Virus record (IMG/VR): IMGVR_UViG_3300029532_000007
Location: 1 to 44,775 of that record
Length of the DNA: 44,775 nt
Strand: one strand, 5' to 3'
Origin: a virus
Below, one piece after another: positions 8,743 to 25,987 of this stretch. The notes below the pieces were generated by a model, which worked only from the letters and a program-made list of their open reading frames with translations, was not told the DNA's origin and did not search any database. Position 1 is the stretch's first letter; each line of letters opens with the position of its first letter. Both the position numbers and the translations under genes were made by a program.

Positions 8743-9972
8743 TCAAAACCGCGTCAGCAATGCGGCATTTTTCTCTCGTTCTTCTCGTTCAAAAGAAGCG
8801 AGATAATTTTCTGTCGTCTTCAAGTCCGTATGTCCGAGGCTTTCGGAAATATAGGCTATACTTGCCCCGGAACGCTTCAATACGGTGGCGAATGAATGGC
8901 GGGCCGTATATGTTGAAACCGGAGGCAACCCTAATGCTTTGGAAATAGACCTAAATTTACGATTTATGCAGCTTGTTAGGTCTTTTGCCTTTTGCCGCTG
9001 CTCCTCAATAGATTCTTTGCCCGTAAGAATAGGAAATATAAAACTATCAGGACTTTCTTTGTTGCCCCATCGTGATATAATATCCTGCATTTGAGGTACA
9101 ATTATCGCCCGCACGGCTTTCCGGGACTTTGTGCGGTGCTCCGTCTTTTTCCGTACATAACTTATTTCCCCGTCCTCAATATCACTATATCGCAACCTTA
9201 CGAAGTCGGCGACATTGATTCCATTGCACAAATACATAAACAGCCAATAATCGCGGTATTTTGCCGTTGCTTCGTATCCATCATCATAACGGGCTATCAA
9301 GCCTATCTGCTCCAATGTAAGGGCCAGTTTACGCCCCTCTCCTTCCTGTATCTCGTAGCGCCCCCGACCGAATGGATATTGCGCCTCCTTTACAATACCA
9401 ATAGCCCGGGCCTGGTTGAATATCGATCGCAGAGCGCGCATATATATCGCAATAGTTGTCTGTCCCTTACCCGAAGCACGCATAAACTCTTCGAATCGAC
9501 GCAGCCATGAAATAGATACGTCGATATATTGAACCTCCCGCTTTGAAAAAGCATTCATCGACAGCAACAATGCACGCAGAATATCCGCCGTCCCTATGTG
9601 GGATGTCTCCCGCAATTCCTGCTCTTTGATTTGGATGGATGCATTTACCGAAGTAGCGCCGGCTCCTTTCAAACGAGCACCTAACAATTCAAGCGTGAAA
9701 CAACCTTTTGACGTTAAATCCTCGACAGCTTGTCGAACCAATTCAAAACTATTTTCTATATCTTTGCGAACGGATACAAGCGAATGAAGGCGCGTCGCAT
9801 TGAGCCGCTGCCAATCATCGGGCATCATACTCTTACCGGTTGGGTAATAAGAGCGCACACGACGATACGATACCCGGATACGCACGGGATACTGGCCATT
9901 TGCCAACGCCCGGCGGGTGTCGAGAATAGTGGCCACCGTTACGCCATCCTTTGAATAGTAGTGGTTGTTCAT
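8743..9972 (-). CDS. int: Tyrosine recombinase / phage integrase (Bacteroidota type with N-terminal arm-binding domain)
   Basis: 409 aa. The C-terminal catalytic region has ARHSFATVLKRSGASIAYISESLGHTDLKTTENYL. attP lies immediately upstream. Confidence 0.9.
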   Translation of the reverse strand: MNNHYYSKDGVTVATILDTRRALANGQYPVRIRVSYRRVRSYYPTGKSMMPDDWQRLNATRLHSLVSVRKDIENSFELVRQAVEDLTSKGCFTLELLGARLKGAGATSVNASIQIKEQELRETSHIGTADILRALLLSMNAFSKREVQYIDVSISWLRRFEEFMRASGKGQTTIAIYMRALRSIFNQARAIGIVKEAQYPFGRGRYEIQEGEGRKLALTLEQIGLIARYDDGYEATAKYRDYWLFMYLCNGINVADFVRLRYSDIEDGEISYVRKKTEHRTKSRKAVRAIIVPQMQDIISRWGNKESPDSFIFPILTGKESIEEQRQKAKDLTSCINRKFRSISKALGLPPVSTYTARHSFATVLKRSGASIAYISESLGHTDLKTTENYLASFEREEREKNAALLTRF

Positions 9973-10006
9973 TGCACATTATTTGCACACATCTTATTTA
10001 TTGCGT

Positions 10007-10026
10007 GCAAAGATATGCAAAGATAT
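10007..10026. repeat. Tandem 10-bp direct repeat (gcaaagatat x2), candidate integrase arm site
   Basis: Direct reading. It lies between the int start and the attP core. Confidence 0.5.
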
Positions 10027-13923: not shown

Positions 13924-14346
13924 TCAGAATACTACAACCATGCTTGGGAACGGTGCGCTATTCTTCGCTCCGCCAAACTTTAACCGTCCTCGAATAAATC
14001 GAATCTCTTTCGCTTTACGATAAATAAACTCGTGAAAATAACATGTATCCGTTCGGGCCGGAATAAGGGCGACTACGATTGTTCCTGGCTTGCGCGATTC
14101 TTCATAGCACTTTTTTACCCAGTCACAAATACTCCTTCCATAAGGCGGGTTACAAAAAACAATTTCACCGGCCCAATTCTGCAATAACCCATCATCGTGT
14201 TTTGTGTAAAACTTCGCGCACTTCGCATTATCCGGACACGCGCAGGGGCCAAGAGTAAAATGAAACTCCGCATTGAGTTTGTCGAAGAAGTCCTGTGGAG
14301 TAGCCCACAAATCTGTTGCACTTGAAAACATTACATTTGTATTCAT
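13924..14346 (-). CDS. dam: Phage Dam-family DNA N6-adenine methyltransferase
   Basis: MNTNVMFSSATDLWATPQDFFDKLNAEFHFTLGPCA..NAKCAKFYTK..VFCNPPYGR..LIPARTDT..IRFIRGRLKFGG..APFPSMVVVF is the classic phage Dam (NPPY) pattern. The start is moved to ATG 14346. Confidence 0.9.
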   Translation of the reverse strand: MNTNVMFSSATDLWATPQDFFDKLNAEFHFTLGPCACPDNAKCAKFYTKHDDGLLQNWAGEIVFCNPPYGRSICDWVKKCYEESRKPGTIVVALIPARTDTCYFHEFIYRKAKEIRFIRGRLKFGGAKNSAPFPSMVVVF

Positions 14347-14423
14347 TTTCTCTTTCCTTTTAGCTCCGCAACGCGGCGGAGGATAAAGTTCTCTCGGTAT
14401 GCCATATACATCCGGTAATTCCA

Positions 14424-14525
14424 TCATTCAACAAATTCCGAAAAATGAATCGGATGTATCATGCGTATTGGAGCTAACTTCTTGTCAGCCTCCCGCCGCA
14501 GTCGTTTCGGTAGGCGTGTTTTCAT
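14424..14525 (-). CDS. Very small ORF (33 aa) bridging the Cys-rich protein and Dam (weak)
   Basis: MKTRLPKRLRREADKKLAPIRMIHPIHFSEFVE*. Its start overlaps the upstream stop (ATGA). Confidence 0.25.
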   Translation of the reverse strand: MKTRLPKRLRREADKKLAPIRMIHPIHFSEFVE

Positions 14526-14902
14526 CGTTTAATCAACTTTGCATGTAAACCATCAATCTCATACTCCCGGTAGCATTTATCGCAGATGATTGGCCCATCC
14601 TCATAAACCGGGCATTCCAAATCTTCCCAAACGTCAGTATAATTAATGCCCCTCGCCTGAATATCATTTCCGCAAATGCACCTGAACTCACAGACGACTT
14701 TATACTTAATATCTTCCACATGAATGTATACATCCAACCGGCCATCATTGGCATCCTTTTCCCGTTGTGTACGTTCGCGCTCGATCTTCTGCAAAAGCGC
14801 GATTTGTTTGGGATTGCCGATTTCAGGTTTTATATCCCCGAGCATAAACTTGCCATCCACGAGACGCAACGGCTGCTCAATGCTTGTTACCTGATCTTTC
14901 AT
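14522..14902 (-). CDS. Cys-rich (zinc-ribbon-like) protein of unknown function
   Basis: 126 aa. It contains CEFRCICGN ... ECPVYEDGPIICDKC. The start overlaps the radical-SAM stop. Confidence 0.6.
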   Translation of the reverse strand: MKDQVTSIEQPLRLVDGKFMLGDIKPEIGNPKQIALLQKIERERTQREKDANDGRLDVYIHVEDIKYKVVCEFRCICGNDIQARGINYTDVWEDLECPVYEDGPIICDKCYREYEIDGLHAKLIKR

Positions 14903-15777
14903 CTCTTGTAATTTTTAAATTCAACACTCTTAAAAATAGCCTTGTGATTGCACCAACGAGCCAATCGTTTCTGCTCATTCGTCGGTTTGATGTTATTATC
15001 GAAATCCCGGTAAGGCTGGGCAAACGGGCAGACTTTCAGCTTGCGTAGGGCGTTGATCCGCTCCAATGATTCATCGACATCTTGAATCAGACAGTAGACG
15101 AAAATGCGATATGGCTTGATGCCTCGGCGCCCCAACTCTTTGACACACTTTGTAACCGCCTCCAGTTGGGACATACGGTCGCAGGCGAACCGAATATGCC
15201 GAATCCATTTCACCCGTGCCAGCAGGTCGAGGATGTAGAGATCATCGCACGCCCTCCGGGCATCCAGCCCTTGATTGAAATCGACTGCGATCCCCATGCG
15301 GACAATCTCCTCGATCTGTTCCAATCCGAACTCCGACGCCAGCACGTTGTTGTCGAGCAACACGGCCTGACGCTTGTCGCCGAGGAACTCCCGGAGCGGG
15401 GATGCCGGTCGGATGGCTCCCTCCTTGTGCGAAACGATGCACCACGGGCAGCGGTTCGGGCAACCACGGGTCAGGAAACCATAGGCTTCCCTGACGCCAT
15501 AGAGCGAGTAATCCGGGCAGATGTGTTCCACCTCTTCCGGCAGCACCGTCGCATAGTCCCGGAATCCCGTTCCGCCCCGGATTACCTCGCAATGGTAGAT
15601 GTCCGGACAATCGGCCGTGAAGGTGAAGACCTTCGACATGTAAACCCGGTCGTAGCACCCGAACATCGGGTCTGCGAACTCCACTCGGTCGCCCTGCGCC
15701 TTATGCCACGCCGATATTTTCATCAGCGCGAGATTCGGGAAATGATGCCCGTCTATGTCAACCAAACCTATTCGCAT
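14899..15777 (-). CDS. Radical SAM protein, compact class-B-like (N-terminal Rossmann/B12-binding-like domain)
   Basis: It has GFLTRGCPNRCPWC (CxxxCxxC) about 105 aa from the MRIGLVDIDGHHFPNLALMKISAWHKAQGDRVEF start. The start is set at ATG 15777 because the longer ORF is an out-of-frame overlap with dcm. Confidence 0.8.
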   Translation of the reverse strand: MRIGLVDIDGHHFPNLALMKISAWHKAQGDRVEFADPMFGCYDRVYMSKVFTFTADCPDIYHCEVIRGGTGFRDYATVLPEEVEHICPDYSLYGVREAYGFLTRGCPNRCPWCIVSHKEGAIRPASPLREFLGDKRQAVLLDNNVLASEFGLEQIEEIVRMGIAVDFNQGLDARRACDDLYILDLLARVKWIRHIRFACDRMSQLEAVTKCVKELGRRGIKPYRIFVYCLIQDVDESLERINALRKLKVCPFAQPYRDFDNNIKPTNEQKRLARWCNHKAIFKSVEFKNYKR

Positions 15778-16916
15778 AGTCCGTATTTCAACATATTCCT
15801 GAATATCCCCATCATCGGAGCCTTTACGATACTGTTCCCGGCCAGCTTGTATTGCTGCGTATCGCTGATTCCCACAGCTTGTATCTTGTCGATGTCGCCG
15901 TCCGAAACATCCATCAGCCGCAAACATTCTCGGGGCGTAAGGCGGCGGATGCAGCCTGCATAGTCCAGCAAATTGTTCTGCTCCCACGCACTTCCTGTAA
16001 TCGTTCCGGGAATATCCGCTTCGCCGCCTTTGTTGAAGCCGCGTCCCCGCATCAGGATTTTTGGTTCGAGGCCGCCGCCCGATTTCGTCGTTATCGTCGG
16101 GCTGATGCCGGTCGGATCGTATACCCGGTATTGCTGTCGGTTCCAGTCCGTTTCCTTTGTCGCACCGATCTGAATAGACTTGTCGGATATGAAAGTACCA
16201 GTCCAATTTGCGCAACCTTTCGCTGTTAAACACATCGCCACTTCACCGTTGATAGCCGTATATTTCCCTAACTTCTTTTTGACGTAATTTATCCCGCGCT
16301 CGTTCAAAAAATACTTCTCGTCTACCTCCAGCTCCAGCACATCTTTCAGCCGCTTTTCCAACCGAACCGGATGCGGAAACTCATACCAGCATCCGTTAAG
16401 AATGGAGAGCATAAACACACGTTCCCGGTTCTGCGGCACGCCGTAGTCTTTGGCGTTGAGTATTTCCGTGTAATTGACATAATCGAGCGAGCGAAGCCAC
16501 GATTCCCATTTGAGAAACAGCGGACGGTATTTATCCGACACGAGGGCTTTCACATTCTCCATCAGCAGGAATTTAGGACGCTTGGCCGCGATCGGCCGAC
16601 GGCATTCCCATAACAGAGATGACCGGGTACCCGAATCTTCTTCGAAGCCCTTCTGTTCTCCAGCACTACTGATGTCGGTACACGGAAACGAGTAGGTGAA
16701 CAGGTCGAAGTCCGGAACGGCGTTCCAATCGATTTTCGTGATGTCGCCGTAATTTCGGTCTGCCAACTCCGGAAATACTGCATTATGGGCTTTGATCGCC
16801 CATCTGTCGATCTCCGACCAGCCTACGCACTCGTAATTCGCACCTATGTCCCGGAGGGCCATAAGTTGGCTGTCATAGCCGGAAAAACTTGTGAATACTC
16901 GTAATTTCATGGTCAT
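15768..16916 (-). CDS. dcm: DNA (cytosine-5) methyltransferase
   Basis: Motifs FSGYDS (I), FPCTDISSAG (IV), ENV (VI), QNRERVF (VIII) and GNSI (X). Candidate starts are 16910, 16916 and 16922. Confidence 0.9.
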   Translation of the reverse strand: MTMKLRVFTSFSGYDSQLMALRDIGANYECVGWSEIDRWAIKAHNAVFPELADRNYGDITKIDWNAVPDFDLFTYSFPCTDISSAGEQKGFEEDSGTRSSLLWECRRPIAAKRPKFLLMENVKALVSDKYRPLFLKWESWLRSLDYVNYTEILNAKDYGVPQNRERVFMLSILNGCWYEFPHPVRLEKRLKDVLELEVDEKYFLNERGINYVKKKLGKYTAINGEVAMCLTAKGCANWTGTFISDKSIQIGATKETDWNRQQYRVYDPTGISPTITTKSGGGLEPKILMRGRGFNKGGEADIPGTITGSAWEQNNLLDYAGCIRRLTPRECLRLMDVSDGDIDKIQAVGISDTQQYKLAGNSIVKAPMMGIFRNMLKYGLCE

Positions 16917-16987
16917 TCGCATAACAACTCGTAATAGCTCGCCGCAAGGCTGTCTTTTCCGCCCGAAAAGGTGACGATGACTTTCAT
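16913..16987 (-). pseudogene. 24-codon relic of a PP-loop ATPase (PAPS-reductase/DndC/QueC-type N-terminus)
   Basis: Hand-translated MKVIVTFSGGKDSLAASYYELLCE*. It has a beta-strand plus an exact SGGxDS PP-loop signature and stops inside the dcm start region. Confidence 0.4.
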
Positions 16988-16998
16988 AACGTCCTCCG

Positions 16999-17796
16999 TT
17001 AATACTCCACGGCCGCCCGGCGGTCGATGAAGAAGTGGATACCCGGAGCGCATTCGTTCCAGCGGTCACCGTCAAAGTCGGAGACCTCGACGGTAGCGCC
17101 GACCGTATACACGAAGTTCGCATCATGGGTCGAATGAATTGTCTCGATGTCGGCTTTAGTTCCATCAGCATTCTGAATCTCCACCACATAGGCTTTGTCG
17201 CAGCGACATTTTTCGCCTCCGGCAGAGCTGCGGCGGGCATCCTCCGGGATTTGCAGCTTCACGATATATTCCGAAGCCTTCTTCCAGCCGATAAAACTGC
17301 CATCGGTGGGGCAAGCCATGTATGTACCTATGGCTTCGCGCAGGTCGGCTCCGTACAGGTTGGCTTCGCGCAGGTTGGCTCCGTACAGGTTGGCTCCGCG
17401 CAGGTCGGCTCCGCGCAGTTTGGCTCCGTACAGGACGGCTCCGTACAGGACGGCTCCGCGCAGGTTGGCTCCGTACAGGTTGGCTTCGCGCAGGTCGGCT
17501 CCGTACAGGTTGGCTTCGCGCAGGTTGGCTCCGCGCAGGTCGGCTTCGCGCAGGTTGGCTCCGTACAGGTTGGCTCCGCGCAGGTTGGCTCCGTACAGGT
17601 TGGCTCCGCGCAGGTCGGCTCCGTACAGGTCGGCTCCGCGCAGTTTGGCTCCGTACAGGACGGCTCCGCGCAGGTTGGCTCCGCCTTTCAAGGCCTCCGT
17701 TACCGTTTTGGCAAGCGTATTGTCAACGCTCGAATACTCGAAAAGGATAGAACCTGTCCAGCGGTTCTTGATCGATATTTTAATCTCTTTGTTCAT
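16999..17796 (-). CDS. Pentapeptide-repeat protein with non-repeat C-terminal domain
   Basis: 265 aa. About 25 consecutive A(N/D)L(R/Y)(G/E) pentapeptides are followed by a ~100-aa domain ending in CAPGIHFF. Confidence 0.9.
17332..17676. repeat. 23 consecutive 15-nt tandem units (GGCTyCGyrCAGkwy) encoding the pentapeptide repeats
   Basis: Counted unit by unit. Only about 5 positions vary, and multi-unit blocks recur (e.g. 17407-17451 vs 17632-17676). Confidence 0.95.
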
Positions 17797-22772: not shown

Positions 22773-23240
22773 TCAGTATAGCTTTAGTTGAATACGTTTG
22801 TAGTCGATTGTTTCTGGGGTTACTGGGAGGTTTAAGCGTTTTAATTTATCTATTAAATAACTGTCAGTCAGTTCTTCGCGATACTTGCGTTTCATTTCCA
22901 GTAACTTTTCGGTATTGGCAGCGTACCACTTGCGGTACCTTTGCCGCTCCTTTTCGGTATTGGCTTCACGCCACTTGTGGCGTATTTCCCGTATCTTTTC
23001 GGGATTGGCGGCACGCCACTTTCGGTTATATTCCCACCTCTTTTCGGGATTGGCGGCACGCCACTTTCGGTTATATTCCCACCTCTTTTCGGAATTGGCG
23101 GCACGCCATTTGCGGTATCTTTCCGCCTCGCATTGTTTGCAAGTATGGGTACGACCTAATACGCATCCCTTATTCTTCGCAAACTCTTCCAGCGGCTTTT
23201 CCTGCCCGCATTTGCGGCAGACGCGGGTAATGTCATCCAT
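22773..23240 (-). CDS. Zinc-ribbon protein with tandem RKWRAANPEK repeats
   Basis: N-terminal CRKCGQEKP..CKQCEAERY followed by about 6 copies of (Y)RKWRAAN(P/S/T)EK. Confidence 0.75.
   Translation of the reverse strand: MDDITRVCRKCGQEKPLEEFAKNKGCVLGRTHTCKQCEAERYRKWRAANSEKRWEYNRKWRAANPEKRWEYNRKWRAANPEKIREIRHKWREANTEKERQRYRKWYAANTEKLLEMKRKYREELTDSYLIDKLKRLNLPVTPETIDYKRIQLKLY
22995..23084. repeat. Perfect 45-bp tandem duplication inside the zinc-ribbon gene
   Basis: cttttcgggattggcggcacgccactttcggttatattcccacct occurs twice back to back, with diverged copies on both sides. Confidence 0.9.
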
Positions 23241-23313: not shown

Positions 23314-23410
23314 CGACGCAGGGAGGATTCGAACCTCCGACCTCCACAGGCAGACACTCCGACGCGTCGGGATGTCTGCCAGTAGCGCACTACCGCTGTA
23401 CTACTGCGTC
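23314..23410 (-). ncRNA. tRNA-like RNA lacking an anticodon loop (97 nt)
   Basis: Canonical 7-bp acceptor (GACGCAG/CTGCGTC), D-arm (GTAC-AGCGGTA-GTGC), variable loop AGGTC and T-arm (GGAGG-TTCGAAT-CCTCC). The anticodon loop is replaced by the 32-nt self-complementary GGCAGACATCCCGACGCGTCGGAGTGTCTGCC. Confidence 0.7.
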
Positions 23411-23418
23411 AGCCTTTA

Positions 23419-23841
23419 CTATTTCTTCGCTTCCAAGATAGGCAGATTAGCTTCCGTGGGAATATAAACCACCTTGTTGGGAATGTTATTCTGTTGGCGC
23501 ACCCACAAATACTGAATGTAGGTCGAAGTGATCGATCCGTTCTCAATCCGAATGGCTTCTGCCGCACCTTTTGCTCGCTCTATTTCTGCCTGTGCATTGA
23601 GTTTCTCGGCTTCCAGGTTGGCTTTCGCTTCCTCGATTTTGATACGTCGGTTTTGTTCAGCTTTGGCAAATTCCGCCTTGCCGCTCATTTCCTGCTGCCA
23701 TACGTTGTACGAAGGACATCCCACCATACAGACGGCAATGATACAACAGACGACTGCGACGATTGCAATCCATCCGGTTGCATGGAAAGTGATGTCATAA
23801 TCCCCGAATTGGTTTTTGTGTTTTTCGGTAAATAATTTCAT
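23419..23841 (-). CDS. Membrane-anchored coiled-coil protein (SPFH/prohibitin-like C-terminal region?)
   Basis: 140 aa. It has the TM segment GWIAIVAVVCCIIAVCMVG, then AEFAKAEQNRRIKIEEAKANLEAEKLNAQAEIERAKG..YIQYLWV. Confidence 0.55.
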   Translation of the reverse strand: MKLFTEKHKNQFGDYDITFHATGWIAIVAVVCCIIAVCMVGCPSYNVWQQEMSGKAEFAKAEQNRRIKIEEAKANLEAEKLNAQAEIERAKGAAEAIRIENGSITSTYIQYLWVRQQNNIPNKVVYIPTEANLPILEAKK

Positions 23842-24046: not shown

Positions 24047-24079
24047 AAAAAATGCGGGGGACTTACGACGATCCCCCGC
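24047..24079 (-). terminator. Rho-independent terminator (minus strand)
   Basis: An 8-bp stem gcggggga/tcccccgc with a 10-nt loop, followed on the minus strand by aTTTTTT. Confidence 0.75.
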
Positions 24080-24263
24080 GGTGGCGACACGGCTTCCGCG
24101 CCGCCGGTTTGCGTTCTTTATCTCCCGTTTCGTGGGCTTAACCCGCCTCGGCCTCGCTACTCTTATTCACGCGGCCTCGGATTGTCGAGGGATATACCCT
24201 CTATCGCTTCCGTTGATTGAATGACCCTTCGATCAAACTAACAACGTGGGGATCGCTCCCCTG

Positions 24264-24334
24264 TTGAGCTACCCGGAGTCGAACCGGAAGCGCCTCCTCC
24301 AAAGGGAGATGTGTTACCGTTACACCATAGCTCA
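24264..24334 (-). tRNA. tRNA-Gln: tRNA-Gln (anticodon UUG)
   Basis: Hand-folded: TGAGCTA|TG|GTGT|AACGGTA|ACAC|A|TCTCC|CTTTGGA|GGAGG|CGCT|TCCGG|TTCGACT|CCGGG|TAGCTCA|A. It has the U1-A72 pair typical of bacterial tRNA-Gln. Confidence 0.85.
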
Positions 24335-24480
24335 AAATGCCTGTCTTTCCAGGCTGTCAGATGCTTTCGTATAACCTGTCCGATAGAGTCAAGCGTCTGT
24401 TCCGCTTTGTCATTGCCGCGCAATCGGCAATAATCCCTTGCGCTATCGTCGCTCTACTTGCACCATCAACAAAGGGGTTG

Positions 24481-24565
24481 CGGAGGGTGAGAGATTCGAA
24501 CTCCCGAAGCGTTACCGCTCGCCGGATTAGTAAGCCGGAGCCTTCAACCACTCGGCCAACCCTCC
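24481..24565 (-). tRNA. Type-II tRNA (Ser-like body) with aberrant anticodon loop UUACUAA (nominal anticodon ACU)
   Basis: It aligns arm by arm with bacterial tRNA-Ser: GGAGGGT|TG|GCCGAGTGGTTGAAGGC|T|CCGGC|TTACTAA|TCCGG|CGAGCGGTAACGCTTC|GGGAG|TTCGAAT|CTCTC|ACCCTCC|G. The 31-39 pair is a C-U mismatch. Confidence 0.7.
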
Positions 24566-25580: not shown

Positions 25581-25616
25581 GGGAGTGCGGCAGGATTCGA
25601 ACCTGCCACGCACTCC
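25581..25616 (-). ncRNA. tRNA top-half minihelix (acceptor stem + T-arm only)
   Basis: Minus strand reads GGAGTGC-gt-GGCAGG-TTCGAAT-CCTGCC-GCACTCC-c: a 7-bp acceptor-like stem stacked on a 6-bp T-stem with a canonical T-loop. It starts 8 nt after the LuxR stop. Confidence 0.6.
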
Positions 25617-25624
25617 TTGTTGGT

Positions 25625-25987
25625 TTAGTTCTCTATCAGCTCCTCCACCCGGAAGCCTCGGCTTCGGCGGGGATTGCGCAACCTGCGACATTCGAAATCC
25701 GTACTGAACACCTCCACCGAGAACAGGCACAGCAGAACCGCGGCCCCGACGCGTCGGGTCATCTCGGACACGTTGAGCGTGATGCCGAAATTCTGCGTGA
25801 AATACCAGGTAACCAATGCCTGCAAGGTCCGCTTCGTCCCCGTCTTGTCGTAGATGCTCTGGAGATGGTTGGCTACGCATTGGTAGATCACGTTCATCCG
25901 TTCTGCGATCTCGCGGGCCGAATAGCCCAGCACGACGAGGTTCATTACCTCACGCTCGCGTTTGCTCAATAGGGCGTCAGTTTTCAT
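25625..25987 (-). CDS. LuxR/GerE-type HTH transcription regulator with hydrophobic C-terminal segment
   Basis: LSKREREVMNLVVLGYSAREIAERMNVIYQCVANHLQSIYDKTGTKRTLQALVTWYF. Confidence 0.8.
   Translation of the reverse strand: MKTDALLSKREREVMNLVVLGYSAREIAERMNVIYQCVANHLQSIYDKTGTKRTLQALVTWYFTQNFGITLNVSEMTRRVGAAVLLCLFSVEVFSTDFECRRLRNPRRSRGFRVEELIEN

Follow-up and report, generated by a model that had tools for sequence, protein, structure and literature searches.

A tRNA-shaped phage gene with a closed, lengthened anticodon limb: a candidate non-decoding tRNA mimic

What use can a virus make of a transfer RNA (tRNA) gene that has the body of a tRNA and no anticodon? This question is raised by a 97-nucleotide (nt) tRNA-shaped gene, referred to here as the element, in IMG/VR virus record IMGVR_UViG_3300029532_000007. 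The window, meaning the whole stretch of DNA that was analysed, spans positions 1 to 44,775 of that record, and the element occupies positions 23314-23410 on its minus strand, without an encoded CCA. A first-pass annotation of the same DNA had placed the element at these positions, and the placement holds; the sequence that it quoted is the reverse complement of the plus strand. The answer favoured in this work is that the element may serve as a tRNA mimic that acts in trans.

Outside the anticodon region the element has the features of a decoding tRNA. It reads, 5′ to 3′, GACGCAG-UA-GUAC-AGCGGUA-GUGC-G-CUAC-U-[GGCAGACA-U-C-CCGA-CGCG-UCGG-A-G-UGUCUGCC]-U-GUGG-AGGUC-GGAGG-UUCGAAU-CCUCC-CUGCGUC-G, where the outer brackets enclose a 32-nt hairpin. 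The acceptor stem of 7 base pairs (bp) can be read directly from the sequence as GACGCAG (23404-23410) and CTGCGTC, the latter lying with the discriminator G at 23314-23321 and being followed by CAA, not CCA. Alignment to Rfam places the D-arm GTAC-AGCGGTA-GTGC at 23387-23401, the 5-nt variable loop AGGTC at 23339-23343 and the T-arm GGAGG-TTCGAAT-CCTCC at 23322-23338, all on the minus strand. The landmarks of the tRNA core are all present, namely U8, A14, G18 and G19, A21, the G15/C48 pair, G46 and a T-loop of the TTCRANY type. The Rfam tRNA model (RF00005) matches the element from end to end, over model positions 1-71, at 46.3 bits where the gathering threshold is 29 (E 7e-7 in a search of the whole window), which bears out the earlier description of the acceptor stem, U8, D-arm, variable loop and T-arm as canonical. 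In this alignment 34 nt stand in place of 9 model positions, those of the fifth anticodon-stem pair and the 7-nt loop. ARAGORN and Rfam runs, which the first-pass annotation had proposed, give different pictures of the locus. With default settings, ARAGORN makes no call on the element when the window is scanned and reports only tRNA-Gln(UUG) at 24263-24334 and tRNA-Ser(ACU) at 24480-24565; Rfam recognises a tRNA and finds no match to transfer-messenger RNA (tmRNA) or Y RNA. At E up to 10, the element alone yields tRNA and noise only, with no CRISPR direct-repeat match, a result that bears on a possible role as a CRISPR-repeat mimic (RNA anti-CRISPR). Identity as a tmRNA was considered and rejected, as ARAGORN, which searches for tmRNA too, reports none and no Rfam tmRNA match was obtained.

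A long, closed limb stands where a tRNA has its anticodon arm. Its base is a 4-bp remnant of the anticodon stem, CTAC (23382-23385) paired with GTGG (23344-23347), one of the pairs being U.G; both strands are placed by the Rfam alignment and by comparison of variants. The remnant is followed by a U.U mismatch between U(23381) and U(23348), which variants conserve as a pyrimidine-pyrimidine (Y.Y) mismatch, then by GGCAGACA/TGTCTGCC (8 bp), a U.G, a C.A mismatch, CCGA/TCGG (4 bp) and the loop CGCG. The fold and the variants agree on a 32-nt hairpin at 23349-23380 (minus strand) that replaces the fifth stem pair and the anticodon loop. This had been described as a perfect hairpin; it is a closed hairpin, and it is not perfect, given the mismatch at its base and the irregularity of 1-2 nt after the first 8 bp. 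The 12-bp perfect palindrome reported at its centre, CCGACGCGTCGG, is read from the sequence at 23359-23370, at the apex. Folded as a whole, the element is predicted to form a cloverleaf from which a long closed limb extends (-48.9 kcal/mol, z = -4.2); none of 200 shuffled sequences folded as well. No second copy of the 32-nt hairpin was found in the window with up to 3 mismatches allowed. As modelled, the limb is a closed rod of roughly 19 layers, extending roughly 14 base-pair layers beyond the normal arm. A decoding tRNA has at this place a 5-bp stem with a 7-nt loop, U33, an anticodon and a purine at position 37, and the element has no such arm. A closed rod without a 7-nt loop could neither read a codon nor fit the decoding site, so on this model the element is non-decoding, and codon reading and accommodation in the A site are excluded.

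Relatives of the element were sought in 2.9 million viral contigs with four pattern scans, based on the D-arm and T-arm with a spacing that admitted an anticodon region of normal or expanded size, on the T-arm and acceptor, on the acceptor pair, and on the D-arm alone; the first of these was also run against a metagenome collection. The element was found in 16 other contigs, all of them human-gut viral or metagenome contigs (designated below by L numbers), as 8 distinct intact variants in 15 contigs and one decayed copy. In all 8 intact variants the limb is closed by a helix and a CG-rich loop of 4-5 nt, in line with the earlier observation that the 7-nt loop and the anticodon are missing. A further possibility raised earlier was that of relatives with an ordinary tRNA in this position. 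None was found: an ordinary anticodon loop occurs in none of the scan matches from the viral, genome and metagenome collections, tRNAs of normal length having been permitted. The acceptor strand GACGCAG and the T-arm are invariant in 7 aligned variants, and the only change in the D-arm is G24A, which converts a U.G into a U-A pair. The base preceding the acceptor is U(-1) in all variants, as it is in both genuine phage tRNAs nearby, which likewise lack an encoded CCA.

The element occurs in two immediate contexts, either after a gene of 140 amino acids (aa) or 6 nt past a different tRNA-like gene of 74 nt (L082, L090, L174, L175). An endonuclease gene lies downstream in some of the element-bearing lineages and is missing in four, which is half of them. 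Since it is found in two contexts, with or without the endonuclease gene, the element appears to travel as a unit. A specific link between the element and this endonuclease VII/HNH-like gene was considered and rejected, given the four lineages that keep the element and lack the gene. A megablast search of the region against GenBank phages gave no match, and the sole blastn match to the element alone was the T-arm of a tRNA-Met. The scan with the D-arm alone also returned a tRNA-Gly(GCC), which was rejected as a relative because it is unrelated and has only the D-arm and variable loop in common. The contig closest to the window is L001 (IMG/VR contig 3300045988_149882), in which the element is identical; exact matches between the two occur in patches only, and the window therefore comes from a related but distinct genome.

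The pattern of change among the variants distinguishes a maintained gene from a remnant. Four-fold degenerate sites in the flanking RecT and exonuclease genes are 35-53% divergent between the window and L083 and L082, whereas the 63 nt of the tRNA body show 1 and 3 differences in these two comparisons (binomial p ~6e-11 and 1e-10), and across the variants 0-3 of the 63 positions differ. Because the body has changed so little against such divergence at four-fold sites, these comparisons argue that it is under strong purifying selection. The limb is more variable, differing at up to roughly a quarter of its positions and by small insertions and deletions, and its pairing is retained. All intact variants have one plan in common, consisting of the 4-bp remnant, the Y.Y mismatch, 8 bp, an irregularity of 1-2 nt, 4-6 bp and a loop, the sequence of which is not conserved (CGCG, GCGC, GCAC, CGCGU). 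In the alignment of the limb 97.9% of cells are standard pairs, as compared to 38-52% after sliding of the 3′ partners. In ten pairs of the limb one side only is altered and pairing persists, one pair is altered on both sides, and there is one disruptive transversion, in L004.

The direction of these changes indicates the strand on which the pairing matters. By hand count, all 8 informative transitions at Watson-Crick pairs produce G.U on the tRNA-sense strand and none produces A.C (p ~0.004). The limb is also much more stable on the sense strand than on its complement, with -21.8 versus -8.4 kcal/mol in L004, -25.8 versus -16.4 in L085 and -18.7 versus -11.9 in L082. In the decayed copy, that of L174, the acceptor stem contains two mismatches, the variable loop is shorter and the limb folds less stably (-16 kcal/mol, z = -1.3), and this joint decay of acceptor, variable loop and limb reads as a picture of relaxed selection. 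Taken from sequence comparison, the slow body and the limb pairing confined to the sense strand argue that the tRNA architecture and the closed limb are both selected, that selection acts on the tRNA-sense RNA strand, and therefore that the element is a selected RNA rather than a defunct tRNA, a palindrome that moves or a site acting at the level of DNA. The comparative data agree with the first-pass annotation in describing a non-decoding tRNA shape with a closed, long anticodon limb, which is neither a long variable arm nor a group I intron.

The reading favoured here, with a probability of roughly 55%, is that the element is a non-decoding tRNA mimic that acts in trans. It would be transcribed from the minus strand jointly with the 140-aa gene upstream. 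RNase P recognises a 7-bp acceptor stem stacked on a canonical T-arm with U(-1), and in bacterial tRNA precursors without CCA, cleavage after the discriminator is followed by the action of the CCA-adding enzyme. The element offers U(-1) and a 7-bp acceptor on a canonical T-arm, at which RNase P would cut its 5′ end; the 3′ end would be trimmed after the discriminator and CCA would be added by the host enzyme, as for both genuine phage tRNAs nearby. Processing of this kind would yield an RNA of about 100 nt with the shape of a tRNA and resistance to nucleases. Action in trans is considered most likely because most proteins that handle tRNA read the core of acceptor, T-arm and D-arm. One possible role is that of a decoy or competitor towards a host factor recognising the tRNA shape, and another is that of a tRNA scaffold on which the rod is displayed and stabilised; in the modelled fold the rod is long enough to be an RNase III substrate. 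A search for antisense targets in the window found no common word of at least 12 nt except the palindrome and generic T-arm words.

Several observations weigh against a conserved function of this kind. Limb pairing is kept among related phages, as the first-pass annotation had suggested examining, but strict covariation is weak, and a column-shuffle control is not significant because nearly all changes are singletons that create G.U. The element is accessory, in that most phages carrying the same neighbouring gene are without it, and the L174 copy is decaying. The variants are all close relatives, with a mean column identity of 95%, and the clade is narrow and recent; the pattern of D-arm plus T-arm is absent from 185,579 genomes, one per species. 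No tRNA enzyme, RNA ligase or Ro60 was found among 39 open reading frames (ORFs) of the window screened with PHROGs, 10 of which were also screened with Pfam.

Part of the same evidence can be accommodated by a role in cis, in which the element is a punctuation or stability element of a messenger RNA (mRNA): the tRNA shape would recruit RNase P and RNase Z for cleavage of an early polycistronic transcript between the 140-aa gene and the genes that follow it, or shield an mRNA 3′ end, and the anticodon loop would be closed merely to avoid interference with translation. The location suits this explanation, as the element lies 8 nt past a stop codon in a co-oriented gene string, with a terminator upstream of the string and not beside the element. 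The middle parts of several sister tRNA-like genes are highly variable, and a bare acceptor plus T-arm minihelix, which is a minimal substrate of the RNase P/Z type, persists at 25582-25615 on the minus strand. A pure cleavage signal, however, needs neither a D-arm nor tertiary-core bases nor a limb of set length and shape, all of which are conserved, and in L082, L090, L174 and L175 the element directly follows another tRNA-like gene, not an ORF. A role in cis, the principal rival, is given a small but real chance of being correct. Far less probable is that the gene is a dead tRNA, broken by insertion of a palindrome and left to neutral drift, as the first-pass annotation had listed among its options. 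The region does rearrange, a sister tRNA-like gene in the window looks to have been cut down to the minihelix just mentioned by a deletion between two GCAGGTT direct repeats, and the L174 copy is clearly decaying; nevertheless, the few changes in the body, the survival of limb pairing through ten one-sided changes and the absence of free-standing hairpin copies from the window and from the 2.9 million viral contigs refute an unconstrained insertion. A mobile palindromic element of the MITE or REP type was likewise rejected, as the hairpin occurs only inside the element in the viral contigs and once in the window.

Two further explanations, both very unlikely, concern the hairpin itself. If it were an intron, excision of 25 nt and joining of the ends would give a tRNA-Gln(CUG)-like molecule with the loop G-U-CUG-C-C. 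For the window and several variants, the intron mode of ARAGORN does yield tRNA-Gln(CUG), with an intron of 25 nt placed at 31/32; UGUCUG on the 3′ strand is conserved as well, and a tRNA-Gln(UUG) gene lies nearby. This call is forced, however, and in other variants it becomes Ala(GGC), Ser(GGA) or Arg(UCU) with other intron positions; since the anticodon shifts among Gln, Ala, Ser and Arg, none is conserved. The spliced loop would have G32, a pyrimidine (C37) at position 37 and a U.U closing pair, and conservation of the 3′ strand is accounted for by wobble rules alone. The helix is continuous without 3-nt bulges and so shows no bulge-helix-bulge, the insert is far below the size of a group I intron (>200 nt, P1-P9) and has no group I match in Rfam at E up to 10, and no bacterial enzyme is known that excises and religates such a hairpin. 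Usage of Gln codons (CAA 144, CAG 180) does not discriminate between the readings. A palindrome that acts as DNA within a tRNA remnant, as a protein-binding site, cruciform or recombination site, would fit the perfect 12-bp palindrome at the apex, the identical 13-mer that recurs at 25745-25758 and the adjoining recombination genes (RecT, YqaJ exonuclease and endonuclease VII-like). It is scarcely compatible with substitutions that give G.T on one strand and hence A.C mismatches on the other, with the much poorer folding of the complement, or with the absence of the endonuclease gene from half of the lineages that keep the hairpin. The second palindrome copy, CCGACGCGTCGG at 25746-25757, lies inside the C-terminal part of the LuxR-type ORF (25625-25987, minus strand) and does not co-vary with the apex, from which it differs in L001 and L003; it is absent from L004, L082, L085 and L091. 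As a co-evolving partner of the apex it was rejected as a coincidence.

The favoured reading, a tRNA mimic acting in trans, can be set beside several known systems. YrlA is a tRNA mimic with genuine D- and T-arms and a long helix at the position of the anticodon arm, which is also found in phages and is handled by tRNA enzymes (PMC4201824). It is the closest natural analogue, as the element also combines a real D-arm, T-arm and acceptor-like stem with a long helix for the anticodon arm and no decoding. In YrlA, however, it is the 5′ and 3′ ends of the RNA that pair into the long helix, which binds Ro60, and the gene lies beside rsr, whereas the element ends at its acceptor stem and its helix is closed by a loop. 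The element has no GNCGAA-type motif, and, as noted above, a search of the ORFs screened found no Ro60 gene. Identity as YrlA or another Y RNA was rejected in view of these ends and because Rfam gave no Y-RNA match, whether the gathering score or E up to 10 was applied. Phage T4 produces RNAC and RNAD, small stable RNAs from its tRNA gene region which are not tRNAs and whose role is undescribed (PMC3014915, PMC9697503). The element resembles them as a small phage RNA among tRNA genes, although the host phylum differs and no relation in sequence or structure is expected. In engineered tRNA scaffolds the anticodon stem-loop is swapped for a cargo hairpin, giving an RNA that is processed by RNase P/Z and resists nucleases in bacteria (PMC3753655). 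The topology of the element is exactly that of such a scaffold, with an intact acceptor/D/T core and an anticodon arm lengthened into a closed helix; unlike the man-made version it is natural and under selection, and its cargo has no known ligand. The mascRNA, the MHV68 vtRNAs and the tRNA-like structures (TLS) of plant viruses are likewise non-decoding tRNA mimics whose shape serves processing or stability. Domain of life, biogenesis and architecture set them apart from the element, no member of this group has a long closed anticodon rod on a full canonical core, and the Rfam match of the element to mascRNA is weak and sub-threshold (18.2 bits versus a gathering score of 42.5). Replacement of a short terminal loop of a structural RNA by a long hairpin is also known from the intervening sequences (IVS) of bacterial 23S and 16S ribosomal RNA, where the hairpin is a double-stranded RNase III substrate. 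An IVS lies in ribosomal RNA, the function of which is intact after excision, whereas the loop replaced in the element is the functional anticodon.

The genome that carries the element encodes an integrase, small and large terminase subunits, portal, major head and tape-measure-like proteins, RecT, a YqaJ exonuclease and DNA methylases, a gene content that indicates a temperate siphovirus-like phage. The closest cultured terminases, at ~34% identity, are those of Bacteroides phages. The host is probably a member of the gut Bacteroidales, since the neighbouring 140-aa gene is widespread in genomes of Alistipes/Rikenellaceae and other Bacteroidales. The element lies in a string of minus-strand genes that runs from a LuxR-type regulator, a winged helix-turn-helix protein, tRNA-Ser, tRNA-Gln, a non-coding stretch of ~215 nt with a terminator and a 54-aa ORF to the 140-aa gene, the element, the endonuclease VII/HNH-like gene, two small ORFs, RecT and the exonuclease. 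The 140-aa gene (23419-23841, minus strand), whose stop codon lies 8 nt ahead of the element, is upstream of it and co-oriented; it matches PHROG 11227 (‘protease’) and, weakly, a PHROG family named lipoprotein. A strong terminator-like hairpin with a T-run at 24047-24079 (minus strand) divides the unit of tRNA-Ser and tRNA-Gln from that of the element. The non-coding stretch at 24047-24263 (minus strand) is conserved in 6 variants and has several predicted hairpins, repeated GCGUGAA...AGUAGC motifs and no Rfam match; it is a candidate non-coding RNA co-transcribed with both tRNAs.

Other features of the window were also recorded. The tRNA-Ser at 24480-24565 (minus strand) is unusual in its anticodon, ACU (A34), and the closing pair of its anticodon stem is mismatched; it is conserved in L003, L091 and L175. 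The endonuclease VII/HNH-like ORF directly downstream of the element (22773-23240, minus strand) contains five tandem repeats of 45 nt (15 aa) at 22874-23143. It is present in some lineages only, is merely 61% identical in L084 (a contig also sampled as L003), and its behaviour is that of a homing-endonuclease gene standing free in the tRNA region of a phage. In the early region, a 444-aa radical-SAM-domain protein (14899-16233, minus strand) is encoded, within 13924-17240, beside two or three DNA methyltransferase-like genes, with which it may form a DNA-modification module.

The element is accompanied, in the window and in related contigs, by other tRNA-shaped genes. The minihelix at 25582-25615 reads GAGTGCG-TG-GCAGG-TTCGAAT-CCTGC-CGCACTC-C, which is an acceptor and a T-arm with nothing between them, and its counterparts with the same ends are tRNA-shaped genes of 95 nt in L001 and L003, 120 nt in L085 and 154 nt in L082. 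The 74-nt gene that precedes the element by 6 nt in L082 (about 9949-10022, minus strand), L090, L174 and L175 (GGGGATT...GGTGGTTCGAATCCACT-AAATCCCC) has the anticodon arm TGCA-CGCGCAA-TGCA with G in place of U33, and receives no ARAGORN or Rfam call. In related loci, genes with a perfect 7-bp acceptor, a canonical T-arm and a non-canonical middle occur as length variants with the same ends, of 90 and 130 nt, 82 and 114 nt, and 95, 120 and 154 nt. Such tRNA-shaped genes with variable middles lie at 2812-2925 in L004, 4947-5060 and 6972-7101 in L026, 4986-5067 and 5996-6085 in L013, and, on the minus strand, 9575-9694 in L085 and 12267-12421 in L082. In L004 the 114-nt version occupies the place of tRNA-Ser(ACU), and the 90-nt gene of L013 has a 6-bp stem with a tetraloop cap at the position of the anticodon arm. 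In two contigs from other environments, L172 (3106-3176, minus strand) and L173 (3798-3868, plus strand), a tRNA-shaped gene of 72 nt shares the acceptor GACGCAG and has an anticodon arm consisting of a 5-bp stem and a GCAA or GCAG tetraloop, and 3 of the 5 pairs are fully compensated between the copies; its T-stem is apparently of 6 bp.

These further cases suggest that tRNA look-alikes lacking an anticodon may form a wider class, which standard annotation overlooks. It is tentatively proposed that gut Bacteroidales phages, and probably others, encode an undescribed class of anticodon-less tRNAs, in which a full tRNA core carries an anticodon arm closed off by a rod or a tetraloop and which would be processed by the host and used in trans. 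Possible uses include misleading or occupying tRNA-targeting defence nucleases or modification or repair enzymes, and carrying an RNA ligand on a nuclease-proof scaffold. The literature consulted holds no account of a natural phage tRNA-like molecule without an anticodon or with a sealed or extended anticodon arm, with the limit that coverage was incomplete and a prior description is possible.

The tRNA genes of phages are usually explained by codon supply or as replacements for tRNAs lost to host defences. If a conserved phage gene retains all the features by which tRNAs are handled and yet does not decode, this would point to a different use of the tRNA shape. As a mimic, the element would represent in nature what the tRNA scaffold is in the laboratory, and it would be an end-to-end inverted analogue of YrlA. 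Standard annotation is blind to it, as ARAGORN misses the element and other tools would call it a pseudo-tRNA or an intron-containing tRNA. Further cases with closed arms occur in related and unrelated viral contigs, and similar genes may be common and mis-filed.

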